Positions 7,285 to 24,866 of a DNA stretch of 26,230 bases are shown one piece after another. The notes beneath the pieces were generated by a model that did no database searches, was not told the DNA's origin, and saw nothing but the letters and a program-made list of their open reading frames with translations. The stretch is from a virus: UHGV virus genome UHGV-0206901. One strand, written 5' to 3'. The position numbers and the translations under genes were made by a program. Position 1 is the stretch's first letter. Each line of letters begins with the position of its first letter.

Positions 7285-9487
7285 GAAACACTTGACCCTC
7301 GGCAGCCTGTTTGACGGCTCGGGGGGGTTTCCGCTTGGCGGCATCCTCGCAGGGATCGAGCCGAAGTGGAGCAGCGAAATTGAACCTTTTCCGGTGCTTG
7401 TCACGCACAAGCGACTGCCTGGGGTGAAGCACTACGGCGATGTATCCACACTGAACGGTGCAGAGCTTCCGCCGGTGGATATTATCACCTTCGGCAGCCC
7501 TTGTCAGGATCTGTCCATTGCTGGAAAGCGTGCCGGAATCCATGACGGTGATCGGTCGAACCTGTTCTTTCAGGCGATCCGTATCATCAAAGAAATGAGG
7601 GATGCAACAAATGGACAATACCCGCGATACTGCGTCTGGGAGAATGTCCCCGGCGCTTTCTCCTCCCACGGAGGAGACGATTTCAAAGCTGTCCTCGAAG
7701 CAGTTATCGGAATTAAAGAAGAAGGGATCGAGGTGCCTGCGCCTGAAAATCACAGATGGGCAAAATCAGACGTATATCTGGGAGACGGATGGAGCGTGGC
7801 TTACCGAGTTTTCGATGCTCAATACTGGGGTGTCCCCCAACGCAGAGCAAGAATCTACCTTGTCGCAGATTTTGCTGGCGGAAGTGCCGGAGAAATACTA
7901 TTTAAGTCCGAAGGCGTGTCTGGGTATACTCCGCAGGGCTTCCGTTCGTGGCAAGGAACTGCCGGAGGTGCTGAAGAAAGCACTGGAGCGACAGGCTGGC
8001 GGTCTGACGCTGGAGGTGGAACCCTCTGCGTAAACTGTCAGGGCACGGCAGGTGTCGGTATCACAGAAGATAAGGCACTGGCACTTGTCGCACAGGATCA
8101 CGGGAATCATCCAGCCGTTCTTGCCGCAGGTTTTTCCACAGAGCATAGTGCAAAAGCACGAAGCATCGGCTACGAAGAGGAAGTATCTCCTACACTGAGA
8201 GCTGGTGTTGTTCCGGCGGCAATGGAGCTTCAAAGCTATCCCGTTGAAAATCATCCTGCGGATTCGAGAGTCAGGGTGCGTGAGGACGGAAAGTGTCAGG
8301 GGCTTACAGGCAGAATGGGAACAGGCGGCGGAAACGTACCGCTTGTAGCAGAACCGATTACGCTAAAAATCCGCAGTGGTGGCGGAAATGGTGGTAAGGG
8401 CGCTATCTGGCAAACAGATAAATCCGCAACTCTTGCAACCAATAATGACCAGACGCTTTTTCAGCCGGAGGTCAAGGCTTTCGGTGTATGCAGCAAGCAC
8501 TCCAATGCGATGATGTCCGACAATCCGCACAGCGGATTCTATGAGGCGACCACAAGCAGAACGCTCGACCAAAGTGGTGGAAATTCTGTGACATCGAATC
8601 AGGGCGGCATCTGCGTGGTAGCACCTGCGCCTGAAACCTTCGATGTGCGTTTCACATCAGACGGTACAAAAAACGCTCGTGGGCATTGTTACCCGACAGA
8701 CATTTCCCGATGCCTTGATACGAGCGAGGCGAACCCGGACAGCAATCACGGAGGAGTTGCGGTGGTGGCTCTCGAACCGGGGGCGGCATCCCGTATCGGC
8801 GGTCATGTATACAGTGACGGCAAAAGCGGCACGCTCCGTGCAAATGCCGGAGACAATCAGCAGGCTGTTGTGGTAGCCGAGAAGGAGACCTATGCACTGC
8901 AAGGCTCGATGATCGGTCGCGCCGATCAGAACGGACCGCAGGGTGATGGTATCAATGAAGATGTGTGCTTTACGCTGAACACAACAGACAGGCATGCTGT
9001 CGCAGCACCGGATGCCGATCACTACAGCACAAGCAAGAATTCTCACCACACAGTCGCCGCACATGAACAGGCAAACACGCTGGTCGCATCCGACTGGAAG
9101 GATCCTCCGCTTGTGAACGACCTTCCGAATGACGAGCCGGTATATATCGTTCGTCGTCTGACTCCGGTGGAGTGCGCCAGATTGCAGGGATTCCCCGACT
9201 GGTGGTGTGCCGACCTTGCGATTCCCGATCCGACCGATGAGGAGATCACCTTCTGGATGGAAGTATGGGAAACTTGGAGACAGATCACAAATCCCAAGGG
9301 AAAGCCGAAAACGGAAAAGCAGATCCGCAAATGGTTGGCTGATCCGTACACGGACAGTGCCGAGTACAAGTTATGGGGCAACGGTGTCTCAGAGCCCGTT
9401 GTGTTCTTCGTGCTATCCGGCATTGCCTGGGCGGCACAGAATTCTGAAACTAATGCAGCAAATTGTGAACATTCTGATACTATGTAA
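7274..9487 (+). CDS. DNA cytosine-5 methyltransferase with an exceptionally long variable (target-recognition) region, possibly multispecific
   Basis: ATG at 7274 preceded by AAGGAGG (7264-7270); motif I LFDGSGG, motif IV GSPCQDLS, motif VI ENVPG, motif VIII QRRARIYLV, C-terminal RRLTPVECARLQGFPDWW; about 480 aa lie between motifs VIII and IX. Confidence 0.9.
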   Translation: MMDKKHLTLGSLFDGSGGFPLGGILAGIEPKWSSEIEPFPVLVTHKRLPGVKHYGDVSTLNGAELPPVDIITFGSPCQDLSIAGKRAGIHDGDRSNLFFQAIRIIKEMRDATNGQYPRYCVWENVPGAFSSHGGDDFKAVLEAVIGIKEEGIEVPAPENHRWAKSDVYLGDGWSVAYRVFDAQYWGVPQRRARIYLVADFAGGSAGEILFKSEGVSGYTPQGFRSWQGTAGGAEESTGATGWRSDAGGGTLCVNCQGTAGVGITEDKALALVAQDHGNHPAVLAAGFSTEHSAKARSIGYEEEVSPTLRAGVVPAAMELQSYPVENHPADSRVRVREDGKCQGLTGRMGTGGGNVPLVAEPITLKIRSGGGNGGKGAIWQTDKSATLATNNDQTLFQPEVKAFGVCSKHSNAMMSDNPHSGFYEATTSRTLDQSGGNSVTSNQGGICVVAPAPETFDVRFTSDGTKNARGHCYPTDISRCLDTSEANPDSNHGGVAVVALEPGAASRIGGHVYSDGKSGTLRANAGDNQQAVVVAEKETYALQGSMIGRADQNGPQGDGINEDVCFTLNTTDRHAVAAPDADHYSTSKNSHHTVAAHEQANTLVASDWKDPPLVNDLPNDEPVYIVRRLTPVECARLQGFPDWWCADLAIPDPTDEEITFWMEVWETWRQITNPKGKPKTEKQIRKWLADPYTDSAEYKLWGNGVSEPVVFFVLSGIAWAAQNSETNAANCEHSDTM

Positions 9488-9526
9488 GCTGTTCTGTATG
9501 GGCTTTCCGTGATATGCACAATCTCA

Positions 9527-9542
9527 GGGGCGTAAAAGCCCC
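9527..9542 (+). terminator. GC hairpin downstream of the C5-methyltransferase gene (possible operon terminator)
   Basis: GGGGC gtaaaa GCCCC stem-loop about 40 nt after the stop; the downstream T-tract is weak. Confidence 0.35.
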
Positions 9543-9564
9543 GTACATTCTACGATTTACAGTC

Positions 9565-9593
9565 TTGATATATCCGCCGTAATGGCGTAATAT
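9565..9593 (+). promoter_or_regulatory. Sigma-A-type promoter cassette 1 (TTGATA, 17 bp, TAATAT) with conserved leader
   Basis: -35 TTGATA at 9565-9570, 17-bp spacer, -10 TAATAT at 9588-9593; leader GTGACTACCGTAAGGGAAAACCGAGCGGAATCAAAAACGAAACGGAGGA precedes the ATG at 9650. Confidence 0.6.
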
Positions 9594-9649
9594 GTGACTA
9601 CCGTAAGGGAAAACCGAGCGGAATCAAAAACGAAACGGAGGATTCACAT

Positions 9650-10771
9650 ATGAAAACTTATGCAATGATCATTGGAAACCGCAAGGAACTCACAAAGAGA
9701 ATCGAGGCACTCACCGGAGAGCGCAGCGTATACACCTTCATGCCGAGATGCGCCTATGAGATCGGGGCATTCGCAGTCGAGAAGGACGGCACACTTACGG
9801 CACAGGACGATGCCAACCAGAGCGTGATCGACACCCTGAGAGCCGAGGGTATGATCGGTGATGAGATCATCGCAGAGAGCATCGAGGCAGTCGAGCCGGA
9901 GCAGACCGATGAGACCGCAGAGCCGGAACAGCCTGCACCGCCCGTAAGCACCGATGAATGGGACGATGATGAGGATGACGACGATGAGAACAGCGTCGAG
10001 GGCGAGAATGCGGAAGCGGAAGAGCCGGAGGAGTCCGAAGAAAATGCCGATAAGTCGGAGCCTGCCGCAGAGCCAGAAGCCGCACCTCCTGCGACCGAGG
10101 ATGCCTGGGATGATGAACCGGAGGATGAACCCGGCGACGAGCCGGAAGAAACCACCGAGCTTCCTGAACCGCTGACCGCAGAGATCAGCTTCCCGCTGAG
10201 CCATCACACGGTGCAGAGCCTTACGAACCTCATCTGCATGATCCACTCCCGCGGCGCACTTCTCAGCAAGGCGACCGGCGGAGAATTCTTCGCAGACAAG
10301 AGCCTCGCCGATGCGATCCTCGATGACAAGACCTTCCGCAGCATCCACGAGCTTATCGCCTACATCAGAGTATGGGAGGAAACGAATCCCGAACTGAAGG
10401 GCATCCGTTTCGCCGATGACAAGCTGATCTTTGACGGCTTCGGTGCAGCACAGGATGCCGAGACGGTGCAGACCTTCACCAAGCTCGCCGCAGCCATGAA
10501 CAGGATGGCGATCACGCAGAAACGTGTGCAAGCAAAGGATGTCGATGACAGCAACGAAAAGTACGCACTCCGCATCTGGCTGATCCGCCTTGGGCTGAAC
10601 GGTGCTGACTTCAAGGCTGACCGCAAGCGCCTCATGACTCCGCTTTCCGGACACACCGCATTCCGCAACGATGAGGAGCGTGAACGCTGGGAGGCAAAGC
10701 AAAAGGCAAAGCGTGATGCTGCCAGAACCGAACTGACCGAGGAGGATGAAAACGATGCAGTTTCCGAATGA
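9650..10771 (+). CDS. Amidoligase-like paralog, probably catalytically degenerate, with a ~95-aa acidic low-complexity insertion
   Basis: 373 aa; the C-terminal half aligns by eye with the downstream amidoligase-like ORF (TVQSLTNL vs TPQTLRNL; KYALRIWLIRLGLNGADF vs KFAMRTWLMRMGFIGDEF); the GVEIE and HCH motifs of the paralog are absent; residues ~80-172 are D/E/P-rich. Confidence 0.55.
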   Translation: MKTYAMIIGNRKELTKRIEALTGERSVYTFMPRCAYEIGAFAVEKDGTLTAQDDANQSVIDTLRAEGMIGDEIIAESIEAVEPEQTDETAEPEQPAPPVSTDEWDDDEDDDDENSVEGENAEAEEPEESEENADKSEPAAEPEAAPPATEDAWDDEPEDEPGDEPEETTELPEPLTAEISFPLSHHTVQSLTNLICMIHSRGALLSKATGGEFFADKSLADAILDDKTFRSIHELIAYIRVWEETNPELKGIRFADDKLIFDGFGAAQDAETVQTFTKLAAAMNRMAITQKRVQAKDVDDSNEKYALRIWLIRLGLNGADFKADRKRLMTPLSGHTAFRNDEERERWEAKQKAKRDAARTELTEEDENDAVSE

Positions 10772-11003
10772 ACGACAGCTCAAAGCCTTGCGGGAGCGTT
10801 ATCCCGAAGGCACCCTTATCCGACTGAAGCACATGGACGATCCCTACGCACCAGTGCCGCCCGGAACAATTGGCGAGGTTCAGATGGTCGATGACGGCGG
10901 CAACATACACATGGTCTGGCAGAACGGCAGAACGCTTTCTCTTATAGAAGGCGTGGATGATTTCCAGGTCATTTCTGACCGCAATGGGGGCCCCGGAAAA
11001 TAA
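10755..11003 (+). CDS. Small hypothetical protein
   Basis: ATG at 10755 is 8 nt after GGAGGA and overlaps the upstream gene end; 82 aa, glycine-rich beta-like sequence (GTIGEVQMVDDGGNIHMVWQNG). Confidence 0.5.
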   Translation: MQFPNERQLKALRERYPEGTLIRLKHMDDPYAPVPPGTIGEVQMVDDGGNIHMVWQNGRTLSLIEGVDDFQVISDRNGGPGK

Positions 11004-11116
11004 GAGATCCTATTCCATTGTATCCGAGTATACCATAGAATTTCAAGTATATCAAGTGTACACATACACCAGATATGAGCAATGTATTTTCCTCGATATT
11101 CTGTGGTTTTAGCGGC

Positions 11117-11145
11117 TTGCTATATCCTCCGAAAGACGGTAACAT
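11117..11145 (+). promoter_or_regulatory. Sigma-A-type promoter cassette 2 (TTGCTA, 17 bp, TAACAT) with conserved leader
   Basis: -35 at 11117-11122, -10 at 11140-11145; leader GTGACACAACGGAAGGGCAAATGCCCACCGAAAAACCGAATCGGAGGA; ATG at 11201. Confidence 0.6.
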
Positions 11146-11200
11146 GTGACACAACGGAAGGGCAAATGCCCACCGAAAAACCGAATCGGAGGATACCAAA

Positions 11201-12145
11201 ATGACTGAGAAAACCGCACAGCAGATCAACAGAATGAAGGAGCAGACCATCGGGGTTGAGATCGAGATGAACAACATCACCCGCAAGGCTGCCGCAAAGC
11301 TCGCCGCTGACTTCTTCGGCACGAACCGCTACGAGGACACGGCCTGCCGCAACGGCTACTACACTTGGAGCGCATGGGATGCACAGGGGCGCGAGTGGAA
11401 ATTCCAGCGGGACGTGAGCATCGCAGGCTCCGACAGCGAAAAGTGCGAACTGGTCACACCGATCCTGCACTACGCAGACATCGAAACCCTGCAGGAGCTT
11501 GTGAGAAAGCTCAGGAAGGCAGGAGCGCGCAGTGATTACACGCGGGGATGTGGAGTCCACTGCCATATTGGAGCCCAGGGACACACACCGCAGACCTTGA
11601 GAAACCTCGCAAACCTGATGGCAAGCCACGAAACCCTGATCGCCGAGGCAATCAGAGTAGACCAGAGCAGAATGCGCCGCTACTGCAGAACAGTTGACCC
11701 GAGATTCCTTGAACAGCTCAACCGCAAAAAGCCCACCACGATGGCACAGCTTGCGGACATCTGGTACGGCGCACAGGGCTGCGAATACGGCAGAACCCAC
11801 CACTACAACGACAGCCGCTATCACATGCTCAACCTCCACGCTACCTTCACCAAAGGCACGGTCGAGTTCAGACTTTTCCAGTTCGCACCGCCCTCAAACG
11901 GCAAGCAGAACGGGCTCCACGCAGGCAAGCTCAAGAGCTACATTCAGCTCTGCCTCGCAATGAGCCAGATGGCAAAGGACCTGCGGAGCGCCAGCCCCAA
12001 GGAGCAGCAGAAGGAAAACAAAAAGTTCGCCATGCGGACTTGGCTGATGAGAATGGGATTCATCGGGGATGAATTCGCAACGGCGAGAGAGGTCCTCACT
12101 GAGAACCTTACGGGCGACAACAGCTTCCGCTTCGGCAGATCTTAA
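11201..12145 (+). CDS. Putative amidoligase (glutamine-synthetase-like / gamma-glutamyl-cysteine-ligase-like ATP-dependent amide ligase family)
   Basis: 314 aa; N-terminal IGVEIEMNN strand with paired glutamates and a central GCGVHCHIG motif, both typical of Amidoligase_2-type enzymes as I recall them; own promoter cassette; followed by an AIG2-like gene. Confidence 0.65.
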   Translation: MTEKTAQQINRMKEQTIGVEIEMNNITRKAAAKLAADFFGTNRYEDTACRNGYYTWSAWDAQGREWKFQRDVSIAGSDSEKCELVTPILHYADIETLQELVRKLRKAGARSDYTRGCGVHCHIGAQGHTPQTLRNLANLMASHETLIAEAIRVDQSRMRRYCRTVDPRFLEQLNRKKPTTMAQLADIWYGAQGCEYGRTHHYNDSRYHMLNLHATFTKGTVEFRLFQFAPPSNGKQNGLHAGKLKSYIQLCLAMSQMAKDLRSASPKEQQKENKKFAMRTWLMRMGFIGDEFATAREVLTENLTGDNSFRFGRS

Positions 12146-12410
12146 AGGCCTGCCCTTCGGGGCGGAAGAACAAGCGGAACGGCACGGCGGCGCACACAGC
12201 CGCCACGGTCTCGGCTCTCGCCTCGGTCGGTGCTTCTGCTTCGCAGAGGTTGCCACTGGCAACCCGCACCCCCGTGTGGGGCGGAAAGGGTATCCTCCGA
12301 ATCGGTATCCCATCTCAGTCAACCGCGCCACACAGCGCAAATGTAGGCAAGGCATAAAATGCACAACATACGGCACAGAATCGCCCTCGATGATCTGTTC
12401 ATTTACTCGC

Positions 12411-12439
12411 TTGATAATGCCGCCGAAATGAGTTAACAT
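12411..12439 (+). promoter_or_regulatory. Sigma-A-type promoter cassette 3 (TTGATA, 17 bp, TAACAT)
   Basis: -35 at 12411-12416, -10 at 12434-12439; leader AGCACTACCGCAAGGAAAAAACGCAAAGGAG; ATG at 12479. Confidence 0.55.
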
Positions 12440-12478
12440 AGCACTACCGCAAGGAAAAAACGCAAAGGAGAACATAGC

Positions 12479-12940
12479 ATGAACAAGAAAAAATACTACA
12501 TAGCCTACGGCAGCAACCTCAACATCCGCCAGATGCGATTCCGCTGCCCAGGCGCAAAGCCTATCGGCATCACGGTGATTCCCGACTACGAACTGCTCTA
12601 CAAGGGCAGCAAGACCGGCGCGTACCTGACCATAGAACCGAAGAAGAACGGCATCGTTCCGATTGCGGTATGGGAGGTCACCGCAGCAGACGAGAAGCGG
12701 CTGGATGCCTACGAGGGCTGCCCGACCTTCTACTACAAGAAGAACGTCTGCCTGCCGGTGAAGCTGGCAAGCGGCAAGACCAAGCGCCTGACAGCATTCG
12801 TCTACATCATGCACGAGGAGCGCAGCCTCGGAATTCCGTCGCTTGCCTACATCCGCACCTGCGAGGAAGGCTATCGCAACTTCGGATTTGATTTGAAGTA
12901 CCTTGACAGGGCATACATGAGAAGCACAAAGGAGGACTGA
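12479..12940 (+). CDS. AIG2 / gamma-glutamyl cyclotransferase (GGCT)-like protein
   Basis: 153 aa; N-terminal YIAYGSNLN matches the Y-x-A-Y-G-S-N-L/M hallmark of the GGCT/AIG2 fold; a candidate catalytic Glu lies in LDAYEGCP. Confidence 0.7.
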   Translation: MNKKKYYIAYGSNLNIRQMRFRCPGAKPIGITVIPDYELLYKGSKTGAYLTIEPKKNGIVPIAVWEVTAADEKRLDAYEGCPTFYYKKNVCLPVKLASGKTKRLTAFVYIMHEERSLGIPSLAYIRTCEEGYRNFGFDLKYLDRAYMRSTKED

Positions 12941-12942
12941 AA

Positions 12943-13146
12943 ATGAAAGAACAAGTTTTTGAAAAGCGTACATGTCCGAAATGCGGACGCACCTACACCG
13001 AGCGCCCTGCCCTATCCCGCTACGACAACGACACGATCATCTGCCCGGACTGCGGCACGAGGGAGGCGCTTGAAAGCATCGGCGTCGGACGCGAGGAACA
13101 GGACAAGATTCTCGGCATTATCCACGAGAAGTACAACGGCGAATAA
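12943..13146 (+). CDS. Small zinc-ribbon protein
   Basis: 67 aa; GGAGG RBS; CPKCG...CPDCG cysteine pairs; the ATG is 2 nt after the upstream stop. Confidence 0.55.
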   Translation: MKEQVFEKRTCPKCGRTYTERPALSRYDNDTIICPDCGTREALESIGVGREEQDKILGIIHEKYNGE

Positions 13147-13154
13147 GGCGGCAC

Positions 13155-13178
13155 AAAGGGGCGTTACAGCCCCTTTCC
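13155..13178 (+). terminator. Putative intrinsic terminator
   Basis: AAAGGGGC gttaca GCCCCTTT hairpin followed by TCC; 8 nt after the stop of the zinc-ribbon gene. Confidence 0.5.
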
Positions 13179-13317
13179 GCATTCTCAGGGATAACTTATC
13201 CCCCACTTTCCGGGCGTGACACGGCGCGTTCTGGCGCAAACTGTGGGCTTGTGTATATGTACCTGTTCAGCTTGCTGAAAACGGCGATTCTTCTACGATT
13301 TATTTTGCACATAGGCG

Positions 13318-13346
13318 TGGACATATCGCCGGGATCATGGTAATAT
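13318..13346 (+). promoter_or_regulatory. Sigma-A-type promoter cassette 4 (TGGACA, 17 bp, TAATAT) with upstream A/T-rich element
   Basis: TTTATTTTGCACATAGGCG upstream; -35 at 13318-13323; TG-extended -10 at 13341-13346; leader CACAACGGCAGGGGCAGACAGCCCACC. Confidence 0.6.
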
Positions 13347-13404
13347 GCTACACAACGGCAGGGGCAGACAGCCCACCGGAATTCATAACATGGAGGATAC
13401 GAAT

Positions 13405-13875
13405 ATGAACGACAGCTACTTTGAGGAGATGACCTTCCAGTGCGCCGCCTATGAACGCGCCAAAAAGGAGCGCGCCGAGCGCAAGGCTCAGATTGCCGAA
13501 GCCCACGGCTACGACAGCCCGGAGATGGACGCTTGGTACGCTGAGGAGAAGGCGGCGGGTCCTTACCCCTACAGCGGCGGTGAGATGAAAGCCTACTGGG
13601 TGTACAAGATGCGCCGCGAGAACGACGGTGACGAGTTCGAGATGAGCGATTACTGCTGGGACAAGGAATTCCACGATTTCATCGAAACGCTCCGCAAGCT
13701 AGGCATCACCGAGTTCACGATCACCAATCAGAGCACGGCGCTGATGGAGAACATCTACGGATTTATTGCAGAAGGCTGCACGATGGTCGGAACGCACACC
13801 ATCACCAAGAAGAGCCTGCGCTGGGGCGAGGAAGAATACGAAACGGCACAGGGCATCCTTTTCAAGGTGAACTGA
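13405..13875 (+). CDS. Hypothetical protein
   Basis: ATG at 13405 is 8 nt after GGAGGA, the same position as in the other cassettes; 156 aa; no recognisable motif. Confidence 0.55.
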   Translation: MNDSYFEEMTFQCAAYERAKKERAERKAQIAEAHGYDSPEMDAWYAEEKAAGPYPYSGGEMKAYWVYKMRRENDGDEFEMSDYCWDKEFHDFIETLRKLGITEFTITNQSTALMENIYGFIAEGCTMVGTHTITKKSLRWGEEEYETAQGILFKVN

Positions 13876-13883
13876 TATCGACA

Positions 13884-13920
13884 GGAGCAGGGCTTCGGCT
13901 CTGCTCCCCCTCCCCCTTTT
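13884..13920 (+). terminator. UUCG-tetraloop hairpin, putative terminator
   Basis: GGAGCAGGGC ttcg GCTCTGCTCC (10 bp with one G-U pair) followed by CCCCTCCCCCTTTT; the same hairpin recurs at 15715-15738. Confidence 0.45.
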
Positions 13921-13993
13921 CCTCATGTGTAAATCCTACAATACGAAAGGCTGAGATCGGCGATTCTTCTACGTTTTATTTTGCACATAGGCG

Positions 13994-14022
13994 TGGACTT
14001 ATCAGCAGGATCATGGTAATAT
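13994..14022 (+). promoter_or_regulatory. Sigma-A-type promoter cassette 5 (TGGACT, 17 bp, TAATAT)
   Basis: Near-identical to cassette 4, including the upstream TTTATTTTGCACATAGGCG; leader GTGACACAACGGAAGGGCAGAACGCCTACCGAAAAACGAAACGGAGGA. Confidence 0.6.
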
Positions 14023-14077
14023 GTGACACAACGGAAGGGCAGAACGCCTACCGAAAAACGAAACGGAGGATAACACC

Positions 14078-14398
14078 ATGAACCCCTACACACTGAGAAA
14101 GAGCCTGAACCTGATTGATGCCAACACGGCGATCATCCGCGAGGACTTCGAGAGCCTCTTCTGCAAGACTGCAGAGCGTGTCACCTTTACCTTCAACGGT
14201 TGGGACGGCAAGAGCTATGATGGCGAGAGGCGCAGCGGTTACGTTTACCGCACCATCATCGAGGGCTACGAGAATGTGAGATTCTTTAAGGTCGGCAAGG
14301 GACTGCATTACATCGATGAGGACAGCAGCATTACCGAGAAGGCTACGGGCATCGCCCACAAGGAAGCAGAGTGGCTGGTCGATGTGAAGAGAGCATAA
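14078..14398 (+). CDS. Hypothetical protein
   Basis: 106 aa; GGAGGA 7 nt upstream of the ATG. Confidence 0.55.
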   Translation: MNPYTLRKSLNLIDANTAIIREDFESLFCKTAERVTFTFNGWDGKSYDGERRSGYVYRTIIEGYENVRFFKVGKGLHYIDEDSSITEKATGIAHKEAEWLVDVKRA

Positions 14399-14463
14399 GC
14401 AAAACAGCGGAGCCCTTCCTGCGGGGAGGGCTTACCGCAGAAAAAACATGGAGGTTTACGAAC

Positions 14464-14847
14464 ATGAGTACGAATTCAAGAGTCGGAATCCTGCATCAGG
14501 ACGGCGCCACGGAGACAATCTACTGCCATTGGGACGGCTACCCCGAACACCAGATGCCCATCCTCACCGAGCATTATAACACCGCCGAGAAGGTCAAGGC
14601 ACTGCTTGCCCTTGGAGACATCAGCATCCTCGGCGAGCGCCTTGCTCCCGATGCGGATGAGCCGCACAGCTTTGAAAAGCCTGCCGATGGTGTGACGGTT
14701 GCTTACCACCGCGACCGCAAAGAGCCGATGCAGCCTGCGGTCACCCACAAGAGCGTTGTTTCCCTGATGAGCGATGACTGGGGCATTCCGTATTACTACC
14801 TTTTCGATGAGGAAAAAGGAGCATGGCTTCCGCCGACCGAGGACTGA
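14464..14847 (+). CDS. Hypothetical protein
   Basis: Internal ATG at 14464 is 9 nt after GGAGG; 127 aa; probably co-transcribed with the preceding gene (no promoter cassette in between, only a hairpin). Confidence 0.5.
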   Translation: MSTNSRVGILHQDGATETIYCHWDGYPEHQMPILTEHYNTAEKVKALLALGDISILGERLAPDADEPHSFEKPADGVTVAYHRDRKEPMQPAVTHKSVVSLMSDDWGIPYYYLFDEEKGAWLPPTED

Positions 14848-15276
14848 TAGGTTCAGCCCTGCGGGGCTGACTTGCCCCACGTTGTCCTTTGTGAGGTTTT
14901 CCTGCGATAAGCTTGCCCCTGCGGAAAGCCGCCTCACACGGCGCGTTTGTGTGCTGACCGCAGTCATCGCAAACCTGTCGGCCACGGGAACATGGACGGA
15001 GCGAGAAGTGATGGAAACGCTGCTGGATGTCTTTGAACCGAAGGAGCTTGAACAGCTCGGCTACGGCGACTGCGTGAACGCATACTTGGAAGAGTACGGC
15101 GGATGGCGACGACACACGCACCACGTTGCCTCGTGTGGGGCGGTGCCGGGGAGATGCGTACAGCTTGCCCCTGCGAAAAGCCGCCTTACACGGCGCGTTC
15201 TGGCGCGTCCTATACGATGTACAATTCCGCCCGACTTCCCGCCTCATGTTTGTCACATTTATTTTGCAGACAGACG

Positions 15277-15305
15277 TGGACTTTTCTGCGAAAAGACGGT
15301 AATAT
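15277..15305 (+). promoter_or_regulatory. Sigma-A-type promoter cassette 6 (TGGACT, 17 bp, TAATAT)
   Basis: Upstream TTTATTTTGCAGACAGACG; leader GTGACTACCGCAAGAGAAGCGGAATCAATCAAAAGGAG; ATG at 15353. Confidence 0.6.
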
Positions 15306-15352
15306 GTGACTACCGCAAGAGAAGCGGAATCAATCAAAAGGAGCGAATCTAC

Positions 15353-15706
15353 ATGAAAATTCTGGTATGCGAACCCGGCAAGCACCCCTACGTCAAGGAC
15401 ATCGAGTCGGGGCTGGAGAACCTTCAGCACGAGGTGGACGGACTGATTCAGGCCCTCTACCCATTTTCCGAAGAGGCGGCTGTTGTGTGCAACGAAGAAG
15501 GGCTGTTCCGCGATGACCTCGAATGGAACAGAACGGTCGATCCCTATGGTCCGATCAAGGGAACATTCTTCATTTGTGGGCTCGGCTTTGAAGATTTTAC
15601 AGGACTGACCGATGAACAGATCGAAAAGTACACTAAGCTCTTCTGGCCTCCTGAGCTTTTCATCCCGACACCGAACGGCATGGTGGTGCTTCACATTGTG
15701 GAATGA
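15353..15706 (+). CDS. Hypothetical protein
   Basis: 117 aa, starting at the ATG placed like the other cassette-driven genes; the longer ORF-track frame (14774-15706) reads through repeat and promoter sequence and is probably not all coding. Confidence 0.55.
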   Translation: MKILVCEPGKHPYVKDIESGLENLQHEVDGLIQALYPFSEEAAVVCNEEGLFRDDLEWNRTVDPYGPIKGTFFICGLGFEDFTGLTDEQIEKYTKLFWPPELFIPTPNGMVVLHIVE

Positions 15707-15809
15707 CCGCAACAGGGGCAGGGCTTCGGCTCTGCTCCGCACCATTCCCCGGTCATAATGTACACAACTGAACGCCGAAAAATTCAGAAATGATCGTGAT
15801 TACTCACGC

Positions 15810-15838
15810 TTGATAATGTAGGCAAGAAGAGTTATACT
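15810..15838 (+). promoter_or_regulatory. Sigma-A-type promoter cassette 7 (TTGATA, 17 bp, TATACT)
   Basis: Leader GTGTACAACGGAAGGGCGGAAAGCCCAGCCGAAAACGAAAATGCGGAGG; ATG at 15896. Confidence 0.6.
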
Positions 15839-15895
15839 GTGTACAACGGAAGGGCGGAAAGCCCAGCCGAAAACGAAAATGCGGAGGTACACACC

Positions 15896-16075
15896 ATGAA
15901 AACGAAGCAGGAACTGATCGAGAAGGCAAAGAAAGAGTGGGGCGAGACTTGGAACGAGGGCATGATCGAGTACGATGCCGAGTACAACGAGTACATCGTC
16001 TGGGTAGGCAAGCCGGACATCTACAAAGCCTTCTTCGATGCCGACACCCTCAGATGCATTGGCACGAAGTGCTGA
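15896..16075 (+). CDS. Small hypothetical protein
   Basis: 59 aa; GGAGG 7 nt upstream; lysine/glutamate-rich. Confidence 0.45.
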   Translation: MKTKQELIEKAKKEWGETWNEGMIEYDAEYNEYIVWVGKPDIYKAFFDADTLRCIGTKC

Positions 16076-16130
16076 GAACAACCGCCGCCCTTCGGGGCGG
16101 CACAACACCAATACTAAGGAGGACATTTAC

Positions 16131-16403
16131 ATGAGCGAGAACACAGAAAAGCGCGATGCAGCCGAAGAACTAGAACTTACCGATGCACAGGCAGACCGCA
16201 ACGATGACATCTACGAGGCAGCTTTTGAATTCTGCAAGGTGCTGACCGAGAACCCCGACCTCGAATGGGACATGGCGTTCCTCGGTGAGATCGCCGACCT
16301 TGCCGCTGGCATCATGACCGAGCAGGGACACAAGGTGCGGTTCCCCAGTGTGGTCACCGAGCAGGACGGCACGCAGTACATTGAAGAATACTACGGCGGC
16401 TGA
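16131..16403 (+). CDS. Small acidic hypothetical protein
   Basis: 90 aa; AAGGAGG 7 nt upstream; preceded by the GCCGCCC ttcg GGGCGGC hairpin (16083-16100); ends ...YIEEYYGG. Confidence 0.5.
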   Translation: MSENTEKRDAAEELELTDAQADRNDDIYEAAFEFCKVLTENPDLEWDMAFLGEIADLAAGIMTEQGHKVRFPSVVTEQDGTQYIEEYYGG

Positions 16404-16604
16404 TCGGCAAAACGGAGCAGTCCTTCTGCGGAGGGGCTGTTCCACGCCACGTTCGCTTGTGTGGGGGGCTTACGGCTTTCTGCGGATATCTTGCCCCGCG
16501 ATAAAAGCCGCCCACACGGCGCATTTGTGTGCCTCCTGCGGCAAGGCATAATATGTACAACAACCGACAAAAAATCGCCTTGCACATTCTGGTAGTTTAG
16601 CCGC

Positions 16605-16633
16605 TTGATATATCTGCCGAAAAGAGTTATAGT
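16605..16633 (+). promoter_or_regulatory. Sigma-A-type promoter cassette 8 (TTGATA, 17 bp, TATAGT)
   Basis: Leader GTGTACAACGGAACGGGAAACCGAGCCGAAAACTACGAAAGAACGAGG; ATG at 16690. Confidence 0.55.
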
Positions 16634-16689
16634 GTGTACAACGGAACGGGAAACCGAGCCGAAAACTACGAAAGAACGAGGTAAACACT

Positions 16690-16926
16690 ATGTGGCACGA
16701 AGGCACGATTCTGGCACCGACCAAGGAAGGCAAGACGGTGGTTCACTACTGGGCAAAGGTCTACGACGAGGGCAGCCAGTACGGCATCAACGAGGGCAGA
16801 ATCAGTAAACTAACACTCAAGGAGAATGGCAAGGTCATCTACAACTACGACAGAGGCGAGGATGTACCCGAGCAGAACGAGGCTGCGAAGATTGCCCTTG
16901 CGATCCTGATGTACGAGTACAAGTAA
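16690..16926 (+). CDS. Small hypothetical protein
   Basis: 78 aa ORF downstream of cassette 8. Confidence 0.5.
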   Translation: MWHEGTILAPTKEGKTVVHYWAKVYDEGSQYGINEGRISKLTLKENGKVIYNYDRGEDVPEQNEAAKIALAILMYEYK

Positions 16927-17014
16927 ATAGAACGGTCGGTGGGCGGTAGCATTAAGCCGCCCATCCAAACCAAGACGGACACACATATAAATTCAAGGTG
17001 GATATACATAGGAG

Positions 17015-17044
17015 AGGCTTGCAGCACGCAGGCCTTTTCTTTAT
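17015..17044 (+). terminator. Intrinsic terminator between the accessory island and the packaging genes
   Basis: AGGCTTGC agcac GCAGGCCT (8 bp, one G-U) followed by TTTTCTTTAT; ends about 30 nt before the terS start. Confidence 0.6.
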
Positions 17045-17074
17045 GCAGATTTTTTGAGAAAAGGAGTGATGCGG

Positions 17075-17548
17075 ATGGCTCAGAGAGGCAGAAAACCGAC
17101 GCCGACAGCAATCAAGGAACTGGAAGGCAATCCGGGCAAGCGTCCGCTGAATGATGCAGAGCCGAAGCCGGAACGCAAGGCACCGCCCTGTCCGAAATGG
17201 CTGGAGCCCGAAGCAAAAAAGGAATGGCGCAGGCTGTCAAAGCAACTGGAGCAGATTGGTGTGCTGACCGAGGTCGATCAGGCGGCATTCGCATCCTACT
17301 GTCAGGCATACGCACGATGGAAAGAAGCCGAGGAATTCATGACACAGCACGGCACGATCGTGAAAACAAAATCAGGTTACTGGCAGCAGGTGCCGCAGGT
17401 ATCCATTGCACAGACCTATCTGAAGATCATGAATAAGATCGCAGAACAGTTCGGTCTGACTCCTGCCGCAAGAAGCAGGATCACCGCAGGTGCGGATATG
17501 AAGGACGCTGCCGTTGACGATATGGATGAACTTCTCGGAGGTGACTGA
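17075..17548 (+). CDS. terS: Terminase small subunit
   Basis: AAGGAG 8 nt upstream of the ATG at 17075; 157 aa; basic N-terminus (RGRKPTPTAIKELEGNPGKRP) and overall pattern typical of P27-family small terminases; sits directly upstream of, and overlaps, the large terminase. Confidence 0.8.
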   Translation: MAQRGRKPTPTAIKELEGNPGKRPLNDAEPKPERKAPPCPKWLEPEAKKEWRRLSKQLEQIGVLTEVDQAAFASYCQAYARWKEAEEFMTQHGTIVKTKSGYWQQVPQVSIAQTYLKIMNKIAEQFGLTPAARSRITAGADMKDAAVDDMDELLGGD

Positions 17549-20214
17549 TGGCGAGAACGGCAAAGGCAAGAGAAAGACCTGCCAACTATCCGAAACTGAA
17601 GGATTATAAACCGACACGCTTTATGCTGCCGGAATCGCACTACGATGCGGCAAAGGCTGACCGAGCTGTGCGGTTCATCGAGAATCTCTGCCATACCAAA
17701 GGACGCTGGGCAGGAAAGCCGTTCTGGTTGCTGCCGTGGCAGGAACAGATCATCCGGGATATTTTCGGCATCGTCAAAGAGGATGATACCCGCCAATTCC
17801 GCACAGCTTATGTCGAAATTCCAAAGAAAAATGGGAAGCAGCTTGCACTGGATACACCGATCCCGACTCCGCAGGGATTCACCAATATGGGAGATCTGAA
17901 GGTCGGAGATACAGTATTCGATGAAAACGGCATTCCGTGCCATGTGGTTGCGAAAAGTCCTGTGGATGATACAGAGCAAGCCTACAAGCTGACCTTCAAG
18001 GACGGCAGCTCGATCATCGCCGGAGAACGGCATCTGTGGAACTGTCAGTATATTTACGGCAAACGCAAGGATGTTCTCTGGACGACCGGCGAGATCTATC
18101 GCAGGACTTCAGAATACAGACGGCGATTCTCAGACCGACCGCAGTCAAAGCGGGATTCTCTGATCCGAATTCCGGTGTGCGGTGTCCTTCAGACAGAAGC
18201 GGCAGTTTTACCGATTGATCCGTATCTGTACGGCTACTGGCTCGGAAACGGTAATGTGACCATGCCGGAGATCACTGTTCGGACGGAGGATGTCGAGGAT
18301 ATCATCTCGAATATTCCGTATAAGGTACACAACCGTTATCCGCAGAAATGCGGCGGCAGTGAGATCATAAAGTACAATGAACTGAAAGCAGTACTACTTG
18401 ACAGCTTCCGTGAAAAGAAGATCCGACCAGAATATCTGAGGGCATCCGCAGAGCAGAGATGGGCATTACTGCAAGGGCTTATGGATTCGGACGGCTGTAT
18501 CGGTGAACGCAAAGGGCAAAGTGTGTATGTCACAACGCTGCGAGAGCTGGCGCTTTCCGTCAGAGAACTGCTGTGGTCGCTCGGTATCAAAAATGCAGTG
18601 AAATGTGAGCCTTCTACTCGGCATGGGTGGCCGACTGGAGAGATTTTGTATATCGTCCGGTTTACTACCTTTGACGATCAGCCGACATCAAGACTGAAAC
18701 GAAAGTACACACGCACACGGGCGCGGGTGAAAGAAACTCGCTCCTGTTTTCATTATTTACTGGACATTCAGCCTGTGGATCATCCTGTGAAAATGCAGTG
18801 TATTCAGGTGGATAGTCCTAGCCACCAATATCTTGCTGGAACATCGTTTGTGCCTACGCACAACAGTGAGCTTGCAGCCGCAATTGCGCTGTATCTGCTC
18901 TACGCTGACAACGAGCCATCCGCCGAGGTCTACGGTGCTGCCGCCGACCGACAGCAGGCATCCATTGTATTCGATGTCGCCAAAAGAATGGTTGAGATGA
19001 CACTGGCACTTCTGAAACGCTCAAAAATCATGGCGGCGACAAAGCGTCTGGTGAATTACAGCAATGTCGGTTTCTATCAGGTGCTTTCGGCGGAGGTCGG
19101 AACAAAACACGGTCTGAATGTATCTGGGCTTGTGCTTGACGAGCTTCATGTTCAGCCGAACCGTAATCTTGTGGACGTTCTCACAAAGGGATCCGGTGAT
19201 GCCCGTACTCAGCCGCTGTACTTCCTGATCACCACAGCCGGCACTGACCGAAACAGCATCTGCTATGAATACCACACCAAGGCAAAAGACATCCTCGAAG
19301 GGCGGCGTATCGATCCGTCATTCTATCCTGTCATTTACGGTCTGGATGACGGCGACGACTGGAATTCAGAGGAATCGTGGTACAAGGCAAATCCGTCTCT
19401 CGAATACACAATTACCATAGACCGTGTGCGGGATGCCCATCGTGAAGCACTGACAAATCCTGCGGAAGAAAATGTATTCCGTCAGCTTCGTCTTGATCAG
19501 TGGGTTGGCAGTGCGGTTGCATGGGTGCCGGAGCATATCTACGACAAAGGCAATATACCAATCAATCCGGAGTCTCTGTACGGACGCGAGTGCTATGCAG
19601 GACTGGACCTTTCCAGTACATCTGATATCACGGCATTTGTTCTGGTATTCCCACCGTTGTATGAGGGTGATAAATACATCGTTGTACCCCACTTCTGGCT
19701 GCCGAGGGAAACACTTGACCTGCGTGTACGGCGAGACCATGTTCCCTACGATGTATGGGAGCGCATGGGGCTATTTCATATCACCGAGGGCAATGTGGTG
19801 GACTACAACTTCGTGCGGAAAACGATCAATGAGCTGCACACGATGTATAACATCAAGGAAATTGCAGCAGACCGCTGGAATGCCACACAGCTTATCACCG
19901 ACCTGCAGGGTGACGGTTTTACCGTTGTCCCGATGGGCATGGGCTTCAAGGATATGTCGCCACCGATGAAGGAGCTTTACAAGCTGCTGCTTGAGGGCAA
20001 GTTTATCCATGGCGGAAATCCTGTCCTGCGATGGATGGCAGGAAATGTGGTCGCTGAAATTGACGCGGCGGAAAATATCAAGCCGTCCAAGAAAAAGTCT
20101 ACAGAGAAAATTGACGGCATCGTAGCATGGATCATGGCACTTGACCGCTGCATCCGCCACGAAATGCAGGGCAGTGTCTATGACGAACCCGGCCACGATC
20201 TTGTGGTCATCTGA
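17548..20214 (+). CDS. terL: Terminase large subunit, interrupted by an in-frame intein at the Walker A (P-loop) site
   Basis: 888-aa ORF; N-extein ends ...EIPKKNGK and C-extein begins SELAAAIALYLLYADNEPSAEVYGAAADRQQ, which together rebuild a canonical PKKNGKS P-loop; C-terminal nuclease-domain-like region; followed by the portal gene. Confidence 0.92.
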   Translation: MARTAKARERPANYPKLKDYKPTRFMLPESHYDAAKADRAVRFIENLCHTKGRWAGKPFWLLPWQEQIIRDIFGIVKEDDTRQFRTAYVEIPKKNGKQLALDTPIPTPQGFTNMGDLKVGDTVFDENGIPCHVVAKSPVDDTEQAYKLTFKDGSSIIAGERHLWNCQYIYGKRKDVLWTTGEIYRRTSEYRRRFSDRPQSKRDSLIRIPVCGVLQTEAAVLPIDPYLYGYWLGNGNVTMPEITVRTEDVEDIISNIPYKVHNRYPQKCGGSEIIKYNELKAVLLDSFREKKIRPEYLRASAEQRWALLQGLMDSDGCIGERKGQSVYVTTLRELALSVRELLWSLGIKNAVKCEPSTRHGWPTGEILYIVRFTTFDDQPTSRLKRKYTRTRARVKETRSCFHYLLDIQPVDHPVKMQCIQVDSPSHQYLAGTSFVPTHNSELAAAIALYLLYADNEPSAEVYGAAADRQQASIVFDVAKRMVEMTLALLKRSKIMAATKRLVNYSNVGFYQVLSAEVGTKHGLNVSGLVLDELHVQPNRNLVDVLTKGSGDARTQPLYFLITTAGTDRNSICYEYHTKAKDILEGRRIDPSFYPVIYGLDDGDDWNSEESWYKANPSLEYTITIDRVRDAHREALTNPAEENVFRQLRLDQWVGSAVAWVPEHIYDKGNIPINPESLYGRECYAGLDLSSTSDITAFVLVFPPLYEGDKYIVVPHFWLPRETLDLRVRRDHVPYDVWERMGLFHITEGNVVDYNFVRKTINELHTMYNIKEIAADRWNATQLITDLQGDGFTVVPMGMGFKDMSPPMKELYKLLLEGKFIHGGNPVLRWMAGNVVAEIDAAENIKPSKKKSTEKIDGIVAWIMALDRCIRHEMQGSVYDEPGHDLVVI
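17839..18864 (+). mobile_element. Intein (~342 aa) with an embedded double-motif LAGLIDADG homing endonuclease, inside terL
   Basis: Block A-like LALDTPIPT...GDLKVGDTVF; block B GERHLW; two LAGLIDADG motifs (LYGYWLGNGNV and LLQGLMDSDGCI); terminal ...FVPTHN followed by Ser +1. Confidence 0.8.
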
Positions 20215-24511: not shown

Positions 24512-24866
24512 CGATCTGGCATCGGAGGTCATGAAAGGGCTGACGGAATACGCAGAGCTTGCCGATACAGCCATGAAAAAGGCTGTGAAAAAGACAGCGA
24601 CCGCAGTCAAGAACGAAATTTCCGCCAATGCTCCGAAAAAGTCCGGCAGATACAAAAAGAGCTGGGCTACAAAAAAGGTCAAGGAAAACAGCCACAGCCT
24701 TGAAATGACCGTTCACAGCAAGAACCGCTATCAGATCGCACATCTGCTGGAACACGGTCATGCGAAAAGGGGCGGCGGCAGAGTTGCGGCTATCCCGCAT
24801 ATCGCTCCTGCCGAAGCAAACGGTGCAGATATGCTCGAAACGCTCATCAAGAAGGAGTTATCGTGA
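24498..24866 (+). CDS. HK97 gp10-like phage protein (neck / tail-attachment component)
   Basis: ATG at 24498 (GTG alternative at 24489); motifs SGRYKKSW and IAHLLEHGHA...GGRVAAIPH resemble the HK97 gp10 family. Confidence 0.65.
   Translation: MTSIDDLASEVMKGLTEYAELADTAMKKAVKKTATAVKNEISANAPKKSGRYKKSWATKKVKENSHSLEMTVHSKNRYQIAHLLEHGHAKRGGGRVAAIPHIAPAEANGADMLETLIKKELS

Follow-up and report, generated by a model that had tools for sequence, protein, structure and literature searches.

Promoter-leader modules with variable stem-loops head the accessory-gene cassettes of a gut phage

The cassette array and its promoter-leader module

The window analysed here, by which we mean the entire stretch of 26,230 nucleotides from virus genome UHGV-0206901, encodes an anaerobic ribonucleotide reductase (NrdD), a ParB-methylase, a PAPS-reductase-like protein and a C5 methylase in its left part, and a large terminase with a LAGLIDADG insert, a portal protein, a ClpP-type protease and the major capsid protein in its right part. 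The GenBank records nearest to it are gut Clostridia phages classed as Ca. Heliusvirales, and judging from its sequence the window belongs to a gut phage of this type. The LAGLIDADG-like domain occupies residues 303-370 of the product of the large terminase gene (17548-20214), ahead of the ATPase domain, which suggests an intein or a homing-endonuclease insertion. Between the DNA-metabolism and packaging genes, at approximately 9500-17000, lies an array of cassettes with small genes on the same strand, and the interval 9565-17000 is directly upstream of the packaging genes. The families encoded in the array are DUF4314, Amidoligase_2, GGACT/AIG2-like cyclotransferase, zinc ribbon, DUF7698, DUF3846 and DUF7678, and several genes have no family. 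Amidoligase_2, GGACT, DUF3846 and DUF4314 are typical of the conflict or 'establishment' islands of mobile elements.

The array comprises eight cassettes on the same strand, each headed by one promoter-plus-leader module of approximately 85 bp. The promoters are sigma-70-like, with TTGATA, TTGCTA or TGGACT/A as the -35 box, a spacer of exactly 17 bp and TAATAT, TAACAT, TATACT or TATAGT as the -10 box. They are followed by a conserved initial transcribed sequence, AC(A/T)AC, and a U-poor leader of about 50 nt (34-53 nt from the transcription start, which was predicted at 6-8 nt after the -10 box rather than mapped). Seven of the eight leaders have a Shine-Dalgarno (SD) sequence, GGAGG(A) or GGAG, 6-9 nt ahead of the ATG; in the 16605 leader, CGAGGT takes its place. 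In their 5' part, the leaders show a strong depletion of U (A 46%, C 26%, G 22%, U 5.5%), both in the window, for example at 11151-11186, and in 185 related leaders.

The module of the amidoligase cassette (11117-11200, plus strand) consists of a TTGCTA -35 box (11117-11122), the 17-bp spacer, a TAACAT -10 box (11140-11145) and the leader at 11146-11200, which fills exactly the interval between the -10 box and the Amidoligase_2 start codon (SD GGAGG at 11188-11192, ATG at 11201). This module was matched by nhmmer and by the covariance model (CM), the latter at 11146-11190. The seven other modules are likewise on the plus strand. Three have leaders of a second type, B: 9565-9649 (TTGATA-17-TAATAT), 12411-12478 before the GGACT gene (TTGATA-17-TAACAT) and 15277-15352 before the DUF3846 gene (TGGACT-17-TAATAT). 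The remaining four are found at 13318-13404 (TGGACA-17-TAATAT), 13994-14077 (TGGACT-17-TAATAT), 15810-15895 (TTGATA-17-TATACT) and, before the DUF7678 gene, 16605-16689 (TTGATA-17-TATAGT).

A profile made from the eight window copies gave 396 nhmmer matches in 111 sources, from which we parsed 383 cassettes with 185 unique leader 5' parts. The sources were viral contigs and one GenBank phage, gathered either by a leader pattern with a free inner stem or via the amidoligase protein alone. About half of the matches in the first pattern scan of viral contigs were chance matches, and these were removed by promoter context. The first set comprised 137 unique modules, all with a 17-bp spacer and 116 with TAATAT as the -10 box. 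Most related leaders have a GGAGG- or GGAG-type SD ahead of the ATG. Cassettes of any one contig are all on the same strand, with eight modules in the window phage and up to 14 in its relatives. As leader type follows the identity of the downstream gene when related cassettes are compared, promoter, leader and gene form a single unit of inheritance.

The 106-nt module had no blastn match in GenBank phages or PLSDB plasmids, although it can be recognised by eye upstream of the amidoligase gene in Ruminococcus phage NatCom_23091. A scan of a genome collection found only eight stretches on seven contigs, six of which belong to MAGs of Clostridia type from rumen or gut (Ruminococcus, Oscillospiraceae, Clostridiales, Clostridia), and the seventh, 2.6 kb long, had been binned as Bacteroidales; these matches give host context only. 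Searches of the whole window against Rfam gave no match at the gathering thresholds. With permissive settings (E<=1, 9400-17100), the single match was a minus-strand one to PhotoRC-I (E 0.7, 17.5 bits; cut-off 45). The paper that describes the Ca. Heliusvirales lineage makes no mention of promoters, hairpins or intergenic repeats.

The cassette array contains several further elements. The SD region of the amidoligase leader (11180-11197, ACCGAATCGGAGGATACC) is repeated in inverted orientation, with 17 of 18 positions identical, at 12289-12306, approximately 145 nt past the amidoligase stop codon, so that a read-through transcript would carry an anti-SD segment. Among the eight cassettes, this inverted copy is specific to the amidoligase cassette. 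The SD/anti-SD pairing recurs in many orthologous amidoligase loci, for example at 8190-8201 and 9209-9220 of L121, and Ruminococcus phage NatCom_23091 shows parallel changes on the two sides (CTTTGCGGAGGA in the leader, TCCTCCGCAAAG on the 3' side). The inverted copy could reflect an interaction between the 5'- and 3'-UTRs, or it could be what remains of an inverted leader. After the amidoligase gene there is also a conserved, GC-rich and hairpin-rich element of about 190 nt (12146-12335, minus-strand orientation) with the core GGGGTGCGGGTTGCCAGTGGCAACCTCTGCGAAGCAGAAGCACCGACCGAGGCGA and no match in Rfam. In L083, L081 and L005 this core is reversed and lies right after the cassette promoter and leader start (ACAACGAAAG/ACAACGGAAC), replacing hairpin and SD. 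This element may represent a small mobile insertion or a non-coding RNA.

Upstream of several cassette promoters we observed an intergenic repeat, CTTGCCCCTGCG.AAAGCCGCC.CACACGGCGCGTT.TG (14911-14953, 15163-15207 and 16490-16531, with a partial copy at 13216-13237), and a second, conserved motif, GGCAAGGCATAA(A/T)ATG(C/T)ACAACA...AATCGCC, at 12346-12385, 16540-16579 and approximately 9273-9300 of L121. The GGCAAGGCATAA motif precedes the -35 box of two cassettes by 25-26 nt (60-65 nt from start to start) and resembles a -10 box and leader start without the hairpin. GC-rich hairpins with a UUCG-type or similar loop and without a U-tract follow most cassette genes (12147-12165, 13150-13173, 13881-13904, 14411-14437 and 16083-16102), and a scan of 9000-18000 found almost no canonical terminators on the plus strand. 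Rather than terminating transcription, these post-gene hairpins may protect 3' ends or mark processing sites.

Stem-loops in the leaders

A preliminary description of the window had reported a small hairpin, GGGC-loop-GCCC or an equivalent, in five of the leaders. All five are present in the sequence of their cassettes, on the plus strand: GGGC-AAAT-GCCC at 11160-11171 (11117 cassette), GGGC-AGACA-GCCC at 13362-13374 (13318), GGGC-AGAAC-GCCT at 14037-14049 (13994; in RNA, GCCU with a closing G.U pair), GGGC-GGAAA-GCCC at 15852-15864 (15810) and CGG-GAAA-CCG at 16647-16656 (16605). That description captured the inner stem and overlooked an outer helix. Folding shows that each of the five inner stems is enclosed by a 3-bp helix, CGG...CCG, so that the complete structure is a two-tier hairpin. 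In the amidoligase leader it spans 11155-11175, with the outer helix formed by CGG (11155-57) and CCG (11173-75), the inner helix by GGGC (11160-63) and GCCC (11168-71) and AAAT as the loop; its minimum free energy (MFE) as RNA is -10.2 kcal/mol, and the 30-nt segment has a z of -3.75. The other two-tier hairpins with an outer CGG/CCG helix are located at 13356-13378 (13318 cassette), 14032-14053 (13994), 15847-15869 (15810; -13.0 kcal/mol) and 16642-16661 (16605; z -4.15).

The three remaining leaders (9565, 12411 and 15277) had been set apart as a second subtype. This separation is wrong in part. In the 12411 leader folding found no stable hairpin, only CC-GCAA-GG at 12447-12454 (-1.1 kcal/mol, z +0.3), but the other two carry a hairpin at the same position. 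The 9565 leader folds at 9601-9621 into an outer CCGU/GCGG helix, whose middle pair is flipped relative to type A, and an inner GG-GAAAA-CC hairpin (leader MFE -9.3 kcal/mol, z -2.0), and the 15277 leader forms a single hairpin, CCGC-AAGAGAA-GCGG, at 15313-15327. Moreover, the two subtypes are homologous, as both follow AC[A/T]AC[G/C]GAA(A)GGG (ACAACGGAAGGGC versus ACTACCGAAAGGGA). Seven of the eight window leaders are thus foldable. Compared with dinucleotide shuffles, whole leaders reach z values of -1.5 to -4.2 (12411, z +0.3), and with DNA parameters the hairpin segments of about 30 nt reach -3.0 to -3.75 in four of five cases, that of the 13318 leader being -1.34.

Hairpins are also common among the related cassettes. 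Of the 185 unique leader 5' parts, 79% fold at -4 kcal/mol or better and 55% at -7 or better. The mean z was -2.26 in 38 representatives with <80% identity (Wilcoxon p 4e-11) and -1.87 in 15 representatives with <70% identity (p 9e-4). The first paired base is found 8-10 nt past the -10 box in 123 of 147 folded leaders (84%), which corresponds to an unpaired 5' tail of 1-4 nt if transcription starts at the predicted 6-8 nt after the -10 box. In the five window leaders with an outer CGG/CCG helix, the predicted starts are at about 11151, 13352, 14028, 15844 and 16639. Averaged over leaders, the pairing probability peaks twice in the 5' arm, dips in the loop and peaks again in the 3' arm, after which comes a weakly paired spacer. 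Stems of 2-6 bp are arranged in one or two tiers, typically with 3-5 bp per tier, and loops are mostly 3-8 nt long. Approximately 16% of the unique leaders are essentially hairpin-free (above -2.5 kcal/mol), among them the window's 12411 leader and those of some amidoligase orthologues, which makes the element dispensable.

Variation of the fold and the level at which it acts

The hairpins differ strongly between leaders while their pairing is retained. At a single leader position, the 185 unique leader 5' parts contain around 50 helix combinations and 56 loop sequences. Stem substitutions are paired (GGGC/GCCC, CGG/CCG, GCG/CGC, GGC/GCC, AAGGC/GCCTT, CCGC/GCGG and others), the outer helix occurs in the paired variants CGG/CCG, CCG/CGG, CGC/GCG and CCGG/CCGG, and loops vary in both sequence and length. 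This is also seen in orthologous cassettes, where leaders before the same gene have different yet intact stems. The DUF7678 gene is preceded by CGG-GAAA-CCG in the window and by GGGC-AAA-GCCC or GCG-AAGAA-CGC elsewhere. Leaders of the amidoligase gene carry either CGG-AA-GGGC...GCCC-A-CCG or CG-AAAGGC...GCCTT-C-CG, with promoter, spacer and SD otherwise identical. In orthologues of the DUF3846 cassette, four of five hairpin variants have the CCGC/GCGG stem and the fifth is shorter (CGC-AAGCGAA-GCG), and the loop reads AAGAGAA, AAGACAA, AAGCGAA or CAGACAA. Within a single phage, every cassette has a different hairpin (8/8, 14/14 and 10/10 in three phages).

Comparisons of natural variants with random ones agree with this picture. 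On average, 1-4 natural substitutions cost 0.05-0.27 kcal/mol of folding free energy, compared with 1.2-3.9 kcal/mol in random mutants with equally many changes (Wilcoxon p 3e-46, from comparisons that are non-independent), and natural differences per site are 4.2 times more common at unpaired than at paired positions. In the CM alignment, cells in which both sides of a pair have changed number 27, versus 7.6 +/- 2.3 in shuffles (0/500), a significance that is inflated by the common descent of the sequences. Furthermore, 90% of the cells in this alignment pair, compared with 45% or less after the partners are slid by one column. The CM alignment leans toward its own structure, yet it mis-registers 3-bp stems. 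The MAFFT alignment of 70 type-A leaders has this same fault, which is inherited by the model derived from it (R1), and counts of 'not paired' cells from the CM alignment are therefore overestimates.

With RNAalifold, which the preliminary description had named as a check, neither the CM alignment (128 leaders) nor a MAFFT alignment of 14 orthologous amidoligase leaders gave a consensus structure. This is because loop length and stem position shift between variants, so that paired bases do not share columns. For the same reason, a fixed-column count of one-sided and two-sided changes is dominated by stem shifts, and its few clean cases (CG<->GC, GC->AT and GC<->GU) do not amount to a usable rate. 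The idea that the stem is kept while the loop varies, as a sign of selection on structure, is nevertheless borne out by the paired stem changes, the variable loops and the free energy that natural variants hold relative to random mutants. The data thus support selection on the stem-loop as a structure; its placement in a 5'-UTR, as had been suggested, depends on the predicted transcription start.

The strand on which the structure acts is not evident from folding energies, as these are equal for the sense and antisense strands, and the hairpin segments also fold as single-stranded DNA (-4.4 to -7.2 kcal/mol). A comparison of G.U with A.C pairs between the strands is uninformative with only 5.5% U in the sense strand. 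The case for RNA comes from context. The hairpin lies at a fixed distance past the -10 box, on the coding strand and just upstream of the SD, and helices contain occasional G.U pairs (e.g., 14037/14049). With arms of only 3-5 bp, a cruciform could not extrude from duplex DNA. From this position and context, including arms that change while their complementarity is kept, we infer that RNA is the probable level of action. The hairpin is never followed by a U-tract, but by A-rich sequence, and therefore it does not act as an intrinsic terminator.

Function and comparison with known systems

Our preferred explanation, to which we give about an even chance, is that the hairpin is a 5'-proximal protective stem-loop in a repeated promoter-leader module and would serve as an ordinary mRNA stabiliser. 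In this reading the hairpin is one part of a portable expression module that heads each accessory-gene cassette. The module begins with a promoter of the host sigma-A/sigma-70 type (TTGATA, TTGCTA or TGGACT, 17 bp, TAATAT), followed in order by AC(A/T)AC, the GC-rich stem-loop, a U-poor, A-rich and unstructured spacer and the strong SD GGAGG. By hiding the predicted 5' end of the transcript, the stem-loop could slow the removal of pyrophosphate and the 5'-to-3' digestion by RNase J-type enzymes in a Firmicute host, the strong ribosome-binding site could protect the remaining leader, and the result would be short cassette mRNAs with high stability and good translation. As any stable hairpin would serve, stems could drift by compensation and loops could vary freely, and a generic barrier role would also explain why each cassette has a different hairpin.

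According to a review (PMC3997798, which cites Hambraeus 2002, Sharp & Bechhofer 2003 and Emory 1992 on stabilising stem-loops), long downstream mRNA in Bacillus gains stability from a hairpin placed at the 5' end or close to it, or from a strong ribosome-binding site. The pyrophosphohydrolase RppH acts only where two or more 5' nucleotides are unpaired and position 2 is a G (PMC3997798). The predicted cassette transcripts start with AC and have 1-4 unpaired 5' nt. Several findings count against a stabiliser, namely the short stems, the hairpin-free minority of leaders, the RNAalifold result and the equal fold on the opposite strand. In addition, quasi-palindrome (templated) mutation could maintain perfect pairing in small palindromes even in the absence of selection.

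The hairpin could instead be the RNA site of a trans-acting regulator shared by the cassettes, such as an N-like antiterminator at a boxB-like site, a translational repressor or a CsrA-type protein that binds GGA. Lambda boxB is itself a short GC stem with a purine loop, and the phage loops are purine-rich, several of them GNRA-like (GAAA, GGAAA). The occurrence of the same module on eight cassettes here and on up to 14 in relatives resembles a regulon, and GGA motifs are found near the hairpin and in the SD. However, stem and loop differ in every cassette of a phage, which argues against a sequence-specific binder and for a generic role, and which also disfavours the binding of a shared regulator that the preliminary description had considered. 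Orthologous leaders sometimes lack the hairpin altogether, and the GGA frequency is inseparable from the G/A-rich composition. For an antiterminator in particular, no boxA-like sequence is present in the leaders and no CGCTCTTTA-like match in 9400-17100. Terminator-like sites in the 9 kb of 9000-18000 amount to one weak site on the plus strand and five on both strands, versus a shuffle mean of 10.4, so there is little to antiterminate. We therefore consider a shared regulator distinctly unlikely. A role in the initiation of transcription or translation, be it in promoter escape, in anti-backtracking or as an insulator that keeps the SD unpaired, is unlikely to a lesser degree. It fits the fixed distance to the -10 box and the low pairing probability of the spacer between hairpin and SD, and U-poor, A-rich spacers are typical of open, well-translated leaders. 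Yet the leaders contain no CCUCC-like anti-SD segment that would need sequestration, and those without a hairpin retain the same promoter and SD.

Two further readings deny the hairpin a role in RNA. One regards it as a palindrome in DNA: an operator for a dimeric protein, a single-stranded DNA hairpin or a recombination site for cassette shuffling. The segment does fold as single-stranded DNA, equally on both strands, and cassette content differs between related phages while modules stay similar; in T4-type phages, repeated promoter/stem-loop motifs have been proposed to mediate such shuffling (PMC2839356, PMC4122927). Against this, the arms change with complementarity kept and their spacing varies, unlike in the evolution of protein operators, several helices contain G.T/G.U pairs (e.g., GCCT at 14046-14049), and the short arms do not suit cruciform extrusion. 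Since leader type tracks the downstream gene, module and gene appear to be co-inherited rather than recombined at the hairpin, which as the most variable part of the module would also be its worst homology patch. Action at the DNA level is accordingly the least probable of the readings considered here. The other is that the palindrome is functionless, derived from an ancestral module and kept perfect by templated mutation or by gene conversion between modules. Its loss in some lineages that retain the cassette would agree with this, tandem-repeated modules make gene conversion possible, and the kinship of the sequences means that shuffle statistics are overstated. This reading is nonetheless very unlikely given the roughly 50 helix combinations at one conserved position, including whole-stem replacement in orthologues with identical flanks, and the far better retention of stability by natural variants than by random mutants. 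That all hairpins of a phage differ is the opposite of the homogenisation that conversion would drive.

We also assign a small probability to a less conventional function, in which either the shape of the two-tier hairpin is read to time an accessory regulon (anti-defence or 'establishment'-like), or the leader forms a 5'/3'-UTR switch with the anti-SD element at 12289-12306. If true, this would add a new post-transcriptional control layer for phage accessory-gene arrays. With the protective stem-loop as the preferred explanation, the hairpin module is widespread in the phage lineage, undescribed in the sources checked and mechanistically ordinary, and no new mechanism is opened by the finding. 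Its value lies in a sequence-level definition of the expression module that drives variable accessory genes in a very widespread gut phage lineage (Ca. Heliusvirales). With this definition, cassettes, including those with candidate anti-defence genes, can be located and their limits drawn in metagenomic phage contigs. If the hairpins are indeed stabilisers, they would provide compact, naturally diversified 5'-UTR parts with which to express genes in gut Clostridia, which are hard to engineer.

Several known systems share features with the phage module. Like the promoter-early stem-loop (PeSL) motifs of T4-type phages, which are described as composite terminator/promoter sequences (PMC2839356, PMC4122927), it combines a repeated early-type promoter and stem-loop that flank small variable genes in a plastic genome region. 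Unlike in PeSL motifs, the phage stem-loop lies inside the transcript, downstream of the -10 box and without a U-tract, and shows compensatory evolution; we rejected a PeSL reading because the hairpin begins 8-10 nt past the -10 box and is followed by A-rich sequence, which is not terminator-like. The lambda nut site (boxA and boxB) likewise places a small hairpin, with a GC stem and a purine-rich loop, a short distance after a phage promoter, but in the phage studied here stem and loop differ among all sites. Nut-like antitermination was rejected because of these heterogeneous hairpins, the missing boxA and the very few terminator-like sites. Dual heptamers of the Reg operator, TTATCCCnnTTATCCC, gave a single match with three mismatches at 24790-24805, outside the cassettes and at chance level. 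As no TTATCCCnnTTATCCC operator flanks the cassette promoters, a Reg-operator reading was rejected as well.

The closest systems in mechanism are the aprE leader of B. subtilis, the ermC leader and hp1 of E. coli ompA. The phage hairpin differs from these in being two-tiered and very small, in occurring in 8-14 copies per genome and in missing from a minority of leaders; its start is predicted, and we infer its function. Like them, it is a short hairpin at or near the predicted 5' end that is followed by a strong ribosome-binding site, with structure rather than sequence kept, and 5'-end-dependent decay operates in its host clade. The closest system in architecture is that of the EGeRS2 regions of conjugative plasmid p576 (pLS20 family, Bacillus), where a conserved sequence with a strong promoter occurs in several copies ahead of variable, small accessory operons of the 'establishment' or anti-defence type (Val-Calvo et al. 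2021, PMC8708921). The leader in these regions contains short inverted repeats, which the authors thought to enhance RNA half-life (PMC8708921). The module described here belongs to a phage and not a plasmid and has no sequence similarity to EGeRS2, as reflected by the blastn result for PLSDB. The two nevertheless share a repeated promoter sequence with inverted repeats in the leader, placed before small accessory genes.
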